Part shown: positions 58,778-59,720 of the stretch, one piece after another | Numbering within the stretch: position 1 is the first letter of the stretch | Layout: every line of letters starts with the position of its first letter | Assembly: GCA_964016885.1 (NCBI GenBank) | Contig: OZ024750.1 | Location: forward strand, 50,344,001-50,408,000 | DNA length: 64,000 nucleotides | DNA from: Eledone cirrhosa | Taxonomy: Eukaryota | Direction of reading: 5' to 3' | Notes under the pieces: generated by a model | The model's input: the letters and a program-made list of their open reading frames with translations, nothing else | What the model was told of the DNA's origin: nothing | Databases searched by the model: none | Translations under genes and position numbers: made by a program

Positions 58778-59720
58778 ACTACTGTACGTCTGTATATATG
58801 TATGTATGTATACATACGTATATTTAAGTAACAGCCGTACTAAGGGTAAGAAATGAAATTTCGTTTCATTTTTTCCGTTTATCGTTTTCGGTACCCCAGC
58901 CGATTAACTCACTCGATATGCAAATTAGGCTGCTCAGCCGTTAATATGCATAAGGAAAGTATATACTTTCAGACGTTCAACCATCTGGCAGGAAGGTATA
59001 CGTTGCTGACGATAGCTAATACGCTTGAAACTAGTACAGCGTTCCTTTGTCAGTGTTGAACAAATAAGCAGCGATGGTTGCTAGACACTGTACGGCTTAA
59101 TTCAGGATGCTTGTTTACAAACACACCGAACATTATAATAAATGTCGGTGAATCCATACGTACATATATATATGTGTGCATGTATATATATATATATATA
59201 TATATATATATATATATATATATATATATATACATACTACTGTACGTCTCTATGCATGTATGTATGTACGTATGCATACTTATATTTAAGTAACAGCCGT
59301 ACTAAGAGTGAGAAATGAAATTTCGTTTCATTTTTTCCGTTTATCGTGTTCGGTACCCCGGCCAATTAACTCACTCGATATGCAAATTAGGCTGCTCAGC
59401 CGTTAATATGCACAAGGAAAGTATATACTTTCAGTCGTTCAACCATACCAGGAAGGTATACGTTGCTGATGATAGCTAATAAGATTGAAACTAGTACAGC
59501 GTTACTTTGTCAGTGTTGAACAAACGAGCAACGATGGTTGCTAGACACTACGGCTTAATTCGGGATGTTTGTTTACAAACACACCGAGCATTATTATAAA
59601 TGTTCGGTGAATCCATACGTACATATATATATATATGTGTGCATGTATGTATATATATATATATATACATAGATACTACTGTACGTCTGTATACATGTAT
59701 GTATGTACGTATACATCCTT
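58778..59720 (+). mobile_element. Family B HHR tandem dimer, period 460 bp
   Basis: HHRs at 59001-59041 and 59461-59501: CGTTG-CTGA(C/T)GA-tAGCtaata.G.Tt-GAAAC-TA-GTA-CAGCG. Confidence 0.88.

Follow-up and report, generated by a model that had tools for sequence, protein, structure and literature searches.

How a short tandem repeat carrying two hammerhead ribozyme motifs came to lie between long (TA)n tracts, and what kind of element it represents, is the question raised by positions 58778-59722 (plus strand) of a 64,000-nucleotide stretch of Eledone cirrhosa DNA, hereafter the window. The initial annotation had read this locus as a candidate retrozyme forming a 460-bp dimer. The tandem is real: it comprises 2.1 units, its blocks are 93-94% identical at a spacing of 458-462, and 460 bp separate the starts of the two ribozyme cores (59006 and 59466). 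This length is nevertheless local, because unit 1 holds a (TA)25 expansion; the family unit is ~424 bp long (median same-strand hammerhead spacing 424 bp, n=40). From left to right, the insertion consists of a 5'-truncated partial unit made of the last ~50 nt (58778..58826), unit 1 (58827..59288, 462 bp) and unit 2 (59289..59722), all on the plus strand. Both units belong to subfamily S1 and differ by 6.9% from each other, their nearest copies outside the window being 3.4% and 4.0% away. Unit 1 begins with a 56-nt segment with a hairpin, the "tail" (58827..58882, plus strand). Insertions of the family have two fixed ends, and the 3' end of this tail, TTTAT, is one of them. This end is internal in the window copy and not at the insertion edge, and public contigs contain loose ends running into (AT)n at 58882. 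As evidence on expression, such contigs yielded neither ends nor strand. Unit 2 terminates without a tail at the second fixed end, the "body end", and the window insertion is accordingly of the direct type, ending at the body site.

The flanks of the insertion are a (TA)31 tract on the left (58716..58777) and a (TA)60 tract on the right (59720..59839). The left tract, read directly in the sequence, is likely a pre-existing target and was likely joined to the element via microhomology with the element's internal TA tract; seven other 5' ends in the family halt at the equivalent of this internal tract. The monomer had also been said to carry TA/CA microsatellites. The internal (TA)n is present, but there is no real (CA)n tract, and purine-pyrimidine sequence makes up the arms of a predicted long hairpin (59156..59273, plus strand), which contains the locally expanded (TA)25 at 59183-59232. 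A ATGCAAAT motif common to the sister family described below is found at 58918..58925 on the plus strand, inside a predicted hairpin arm.

Hammerhead 1 (58995..59046, plus strand) is of type I, with its core at 59006-59012 and 59027-59030, helix II at 59013-59026, a CUAG loop and predicted cleavage after 59036; it bears a private A>C change at 59022 in loop 2. In the family, helix I comprises 6 bp together with a UAU/U internal loop and a distal stem; helix II is four positions long, with a U.U at its base (G-C in the sister family), loop 2 is UAAYAA, and helix III bears the palindrome CUAG. From their conservation we infer a possible contact between loop 1 and loop 2. The motif had been called minimal. 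As defined in the available text of PMC4209133, minimal PLE hammerheads have no helix III or loop 3, a helix II of 7-8 bp and a helix I of 4-5 bp, which is not what we observe: helices I, II and III fit a canonical type I ribozyme, and by the definitions given there the focal hammerhead is of the canonical metazoan type, expected to act as a dimer. Hammerhead 2 (59455..59506, plus strand; core start 59466, predicted cleavage after 59496) is mismatched at 59484 in helix II and at 59504 in the distal part of helix I, and its activity is likely impaired. It matches Rfam HH9 with 22.9 bits (E 0.006), below the gathering score of 52, and Rfam gave zero matches at gathering scores across the window. 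Because the second hammerhead is damaged, the window dimer is a poor construct for a cleavage assay.

A second copy in the window, an older inverted and rearranged complex of subfamily S3 (48746..50183) that is 10% away from its nearest copy, carries a hammerhead at 48985 on the minus strand, homologous to the dimer cores. The stem I sequences reported for the two copies were both recovered, CGTTG/CAGCG with a GUA site in the dimer and CGATG/CATCG with a GUU site in the complex. The double changes said to preserve pairing between them come down to one pair (U.G versus A-U) and a single subfamily event. In a wider covariation check, 6/15 hammerhead pairs are doubly changed, against 0/500 shuffles and at most 2 in slid controls (9 distinct hand-picked sequences), although independent events are few since most changes come from one sister sequence. 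The loops are conserved while the stems vary. Taken in isolation, the hammerhead motifs show no folding advantage over shuffles (z 0.2-0.7). Self-cleavage of the unit RNA is a prediction from sequence, and the cleavage-to-cleavage monomer would span 59037..59496 (plus strand; 460 nt here, ~424 in the family) with a branched fold (z -8.6).

Searches covering the genome of 3.0 Gb gave 10,575 exact matches to a 30-nt ribozyme core (reversed control, 0) and 11,796 to a 22-mer downstream of the core. Three subfamilies were resolved among 92 near-complete units, and insertions hold up to 7 same-strand hammerheads. The unit has a GC content of 0.35, shows no stop-free frame above 60 codons (the longest has 60) and, judged by insertion architecture, is without LTR organisation. 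A sister family with 466-470 bp units is 63% identical to the focal family and accounts for most of the first 100 listed among 11,226 further matches (control, 1), bringing the ribozyme copies of both families together to more than 21,000. It has a 69-nt tail, a G-C-closed helix II and a GUU or GUC site, and it contains no internal (TA)n. Its arrays reach 31 units with higher-order periodicity, and its copies are very young (L179-L208, L272, L303-L322). No published description of the family was found in a search of openly accessible article texts.

These features can be compared with the metazoan non-LTR retrozymes of coral, mussel and axolotl, which the available text of PMC7229834 describes as tandem non-coding repeats in which every unit carries a type I hammerhead, as here. 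In the range of 150-450 bp given there, the focal median of 424 falls inside and the sister lies just above, and the low GC (35%) is alike. The axolotl HHR_Amex2 has the same U.U at the base of helix II, and a palindromic helix III tetraloop and a self-paired monomer are likewise shared. Judged on genomic sequence, the focal family would therefore qualify as a non-LTR retrozyme by size, type I hammerhead and lack of coding capacity. It differs in that its copies are mostly dispersed, from monomer to dimer, with inversions, tails and strong (TA)n targeting; the strings "inverted" and "truncat" have 0 occurrences in the text of PMC7229834 at hand.

The unit had been reported as unrelated to a "family A", which we guess to be the repeat family at 53.5-58.3 kb, and indeed blastn run with a word size of 7 showed no similarity to that family or to two others in the window that bear hammerheads (best E 0.6). 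The probable family A is a tandem and inverted repeat family (42974-43666, 53571-54826, 56895-58342) in which the hammerhead-like core of the copies at 54343 and 54684 almost lacks helix II, while the copies at 57650 and 58190 are without GAAA. At least six further hammerhead repeat families were noticed (L125/L153/L038; L137/L117; L004/L126; L023/L151; L112/L131; window 39064, minus strand). The 310-bp family of L125 has an internal loop and a UAAYAA loop of the same design as the focal family, and its helix II resembles the one in the window's autonomous PLE. An old, degraded, low-copy related family (L353-L367) combines a UAAYAA loop with a CATG palindrome; no same-strand ORF is linked to the old CATG-loop family in 15 loci. 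Elsewhere in the window, 3066-5246, 17009-17407, 27443-30219 and 5183-6786 contain what we take to be fragments resembling Helitron helicase, mariner transposase and LINE ORFs.

The way in which the copies are inserted bears on how they spread. After exclusion of 7 overlapping loci, we parsed 130: the window, 29 best hits and those pattern matches on contig C1 that were listed first. Being drawn from top hits and from the head of the match list of a single contig, the sample is not random. They hold 142 insertions, 76 of them inverted, with 75 head-to-head versus 4 tail-to-tail junctions. Removal of one probable duplicate left 141, among which a few more may be segmental duplicates: 71 single head-to-head inversions, 4 complex and 66 direct insertions. 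The 3' ends fall at two fixed sites 59 nt apart, both ending TTAT. Both outer ends lie at a fixed site in 50 of the 71 single inversions (21 have another end), and these 50 are tail plus body in 47 cases, body plus body in 2 and tail plus tail in 1. Direct insertions end at the tail (35), at the body (24) or elsewhere (7). In the sister family (36 insertions), one tail end and one body end were found in 25/25 inverted insertions. The 5' ends are variable and evenly spread. The 20-nt bin that holds the cleavage site contains 13 of them (range 3-17) and is not a peak, nor is the linkage among subfamily variants lowered at this position. On these two observations, which also leave the DNA without a direct trace of cleavage, template switching at that site was rejected. 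As the ends lie away from the cleavage site and inside predicted closed domains, priming appears to be internal.

A tail on one inverted arm is a known PLE signature (PMC3846280, PMC8557442, in the passages available). According to the accessible part of PMC11167929, this tail spans two internal RT start sites in vitro, a feature termed unique to PLEs; both target strands are cut and extended, with double-strand priming in vitro, and hammerhead cleavage is dispensable for insertion in vitro, internal priming taking place on unprocessed RNA. The focal family carries this EN+ PLE footprint, namely a tail between two fixed ends, partial tandems and head-to-head inversions. Comparison with the same papers, as far as their available text goes, shows that it resembles EN+ PLEs in 5' truncation, partial tandems, head-to-head inversion and a one-arm tail, as well as in two internal start sites, AT-rich or (TA)n targets and the possession of a hammerhead. 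Unlike them, the focal and sister families have no ORF, a tail of 56-69 nt against 30-40 for PLEs and, in the focal family, a hammerhead that is canonical rather than minimal; no sequence homology to PLEs was found. These data make it highly probable that the family is a non-autonomous element mobilised by PLEs. Spread at the DNA level, as satellite or hairpin DNA in which the hammerhead is a relic, would agree with the many near-palindromic hairpins and with the higher-order duplication patterns of long arrays, yet it accounts for neither the fixed 3' and variable 5' ends, nor the 75 to 4 excess of head-to-head junctions, nor a G.U-rich, sense-specific fold (see below), and we regard it as extremely improbable.

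The initial annotation had proposed that the spread of the element seeds microsatellites. (TA)5 is present on both flanks of 35/47 inverted focal insertions and 23/25 sister ones, and at 37/59 3' ends and 21/59 5' ends of direct insertions, for a background of 758/9585 (7.9%). A microsatellite or AT-rich target, as in EN+ PLEs, is hence a property of focal and sister insertions alike. The flanking (TA)n is mainly target, because the sister has no internal (TA)n and truncated 5' ends cannot bring TA; the 3'/5' asymmetry leaves room for some addition or 5' loss. L008 and L265 show short target duplications with no TA added. The relationship is therefore mostly the reverse of the one proposed, although seeding does occur at a low level: the internal TA tract, usually of 5-8 repeats, reaches at least 20 in 15/236 units, and seeding by it is real but minor. 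A ~210-bp repeat starting with (CAT)n is inserted within the internal TA tract of the unit at L005 (1230-1450), and the same repeat begins at the equivalent unit position at L254.

Which element provides the enzyme was approached from the ORFs around the copies. A young PLE-type element in the window (10662-13800 and 8526-9770) has a frameshifted RT and GIY-YIG ORF, a microsatellite-rich 3' region, a hammerhead at 13664 and an inverted copy at 8751. Translation of 10662-12441 shows RT, a cysteine linker and GIY-YIG, and its ESM Atlas matches are RT-associated clusters; Pfam and PDB returned nothing for the window's PLE ORFs. It has 54,743 candidates genome-wide, the top matches being 97-99% identical. 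This element is a plausible driver of the focal family. It has no sequence in common with the unit, and targeted, non-exhaustive searches found no autonomous PLE with homologous ends.

Targeted searches found no linked ORF that would make the unit the UTR of a coding element. The RT and GIY-YIG ORF typical of EN+ PLEs is absent from the unit, which has no shared ORF junction either, and none was shared among 89 endonuclease hits. A GIY-YIG fragment abutting L005 was discarded as partner because it belongs to an old family that adjoins the unit in 0/29 other loci; ORFs near L091, L098 and L158 come from different families and are separated from the unit by (TA)n, and the junction seen at L016 occurs once, lacks TA and falls on an internal truncation point. 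The repeats could alternatively be pLTRs left by 5'-truncated copies of an undiscovered autonomous PLE. The footprint is identical to that of PLEs, which are very abundant here, 7 endonuclease or RT fragments occur near copies in 65 loci, and retrozymes resemble pLTRs in Xenopus (bioRxiv 10.64898/2026.07.22.740005, available text). Against this, units directly follow units in arrays of up to 31 with no ORF, and the neighbouring ORFs stem from different families, mostly across (TA)n, that of L005 lying beside the unit nowhere among the 29 other loci; within these targeted searches, we find pLTR remnants improbable. The assignment as a candidate retrozyme, of the non-LTR kind, is supported by the non-coding tandem, the hammerhead covariation and the failure to find a linked ORF.

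If the family is a PLE-mobilised element, the form of its RNA template has to be considered. Cleavage-to-cleavage monomers fold better than shuffles, with z of -7 to -9 as linear molecules and -7 to -15 as circles, and the predicted branched topology, closed by an extended helix I, is identical in both families. In 25 family-sister pairs, a mean of 50/144 base pairs is common to the families at exact positions and 10 are doubly changed, compared with 3.3 shared pairs (max 11) and 0.5 double change (max 3) in 30 controls mutated to equal identity; RNAalifold on 14 units gave double changes in 21/93 pairs. Very few independent events underlie the covariation between the families. The fold is G.U-rich and sense-specific, the sense strand being more stable than the antisense by 21-28 kcal/mol. 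Such a branched fold, as modelled, is predicted to bring the two cleavage ends together through the extended helix I.

The composition of the arrays bears on the same point. At L306, 16 pieces over both arms show 0 differences, and at L239 the 5 substitutions are each private to one unit; such homogeneity is expected if a single event copied a single template. The median difference between opposite arms is 0.75% in the sister (4.3% between loci) and 3.9% in the focal family (6.3% between loci). An origin of the two arms from different RNAs was rejected as a rule, the opposite-arm distance being larger in 10/16 and 5/15 cases. Some arrays (L121, the 31-unit array, L305) show periodic shared variants from later local duplication, which explains the ABAB array of L121 better than a dimeric circle. 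Since long arrays also grow in this way, tandems alone are not proof of a circle. A circular template is favoured, and a homogeneous linear multimer would look alike.

In that alternative, the PLE-mobilised element would be copied from a linear read-through multimer RNA, with no need for a circle, the hammerhead cleaving little or merely freeing the RNA from host transcripts. Hammerhead mutants insert normally and unprocessed RNA primes internally in vitro (PMC11167929, in the part available), the genome bears no mark where cleavage is predicted, and units that differ by 3-6% are combined in some insertions. A linear template leaves it harder to explain why the hammerhead stems and both loops are kept across families only 63% identical, why a closing stem that pairs only the ends of the cleaved monomer is kept in both, and why arrays contain 7-8 identical or star-like units, which come most simply from a monomer circle. 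We consider it rather unlikely, and mobilisation through a self-cleaved circle somewhat better supported than its negation. Against the self-cleaved circle, cleavage was seen in 1/9 dimers in the accessible text of bioRxiv 10.64898/2026.07.22.740005.

Newt satellite 2, a hammerhead satellite (cited in the available text of PMC2220036), was brought into the comparison because the focal unit has an octamer-like motif upstream of its ribozyme. The snRNA-type promoter of that satellite has no counterpart in the focal unit when U1 genes serve as reference: the octamer occurs in 0/15 U1 upstream regions and none of these match the unit, so that a promoter role of the ATGCAAAT motif is not supported. 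The U1 genes (L164-L178) share short motifs near -260 and -57, with no octamer within 300 bp upstream.

On balance, we think it probable that the family is a non-LTR retrozyme whose folded RNA self-cleaves, circularises and is copied into (TA)n by a PLE enzyme acting in trans. Arrays would be transcribed, and the transcript would be cleaved at GUA, helix III being completed between two ribozymes through the CUAG palindrome; the monomer would then be ligated into a circle. A PLE reverse transcriptase-endonuclease, acting in trans, would nick both target strands at (TA)n and prime each of them at a different one of two internal RNA sites, which lie 59 nt apart. Tandem units would be produced by run-around synthesis on the circle, and two cDNAs would be joined head-to-head, or a single cDNA would be joined to the flank, as may have happened in the window.

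The element class and the retrozyme-PLE link, the latter proposed in PMC7229834, are already in print as far as the available texts show. PLE-derived vertebrate retrozymes (bioRxiv 10.64898/2026.07.22.740005) led to the same conclusion, that PLEs mobilise retrozymes present as monomers, dimers and multimers. That work argues from co-occurrence and pLTR homology, whereas the present argument comes from the insertion footprint and the conserved fold; in its accessible text, "tail", "inversion" and "secondary structure" each have 0 occurrences. The footprint evidence and the cross-family conservation of the fold are new, and they make the genomic case for mobilisation by PLEs unusually direct. 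The available parts of PMC7229834, PMC8557442 and PMC11167929 leave open what enzyme mobilises retrozymes in animals and by what route the tandems and inversions of PLEs originate. The loci described here provide a large natural data set, in which a retrozyme with a canonical hammerhead bears the PLE-specific footprint and its two start sites, located to the exact base, are strictly used one per arm; the conserved fold names candidate recognition elements, and cross-mobilisation becomes testable in the published in vitro system. More tentatively, a viroid-like branched circle of 420-470 nt could be a dedicated substrate of a dimeric Penelope-type enzyme, each subunit starting at a different structure-defined site on one circle. 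If this were true, a single start-site rule would yield the PLE tail, the tandems and the head-to-head inversions.
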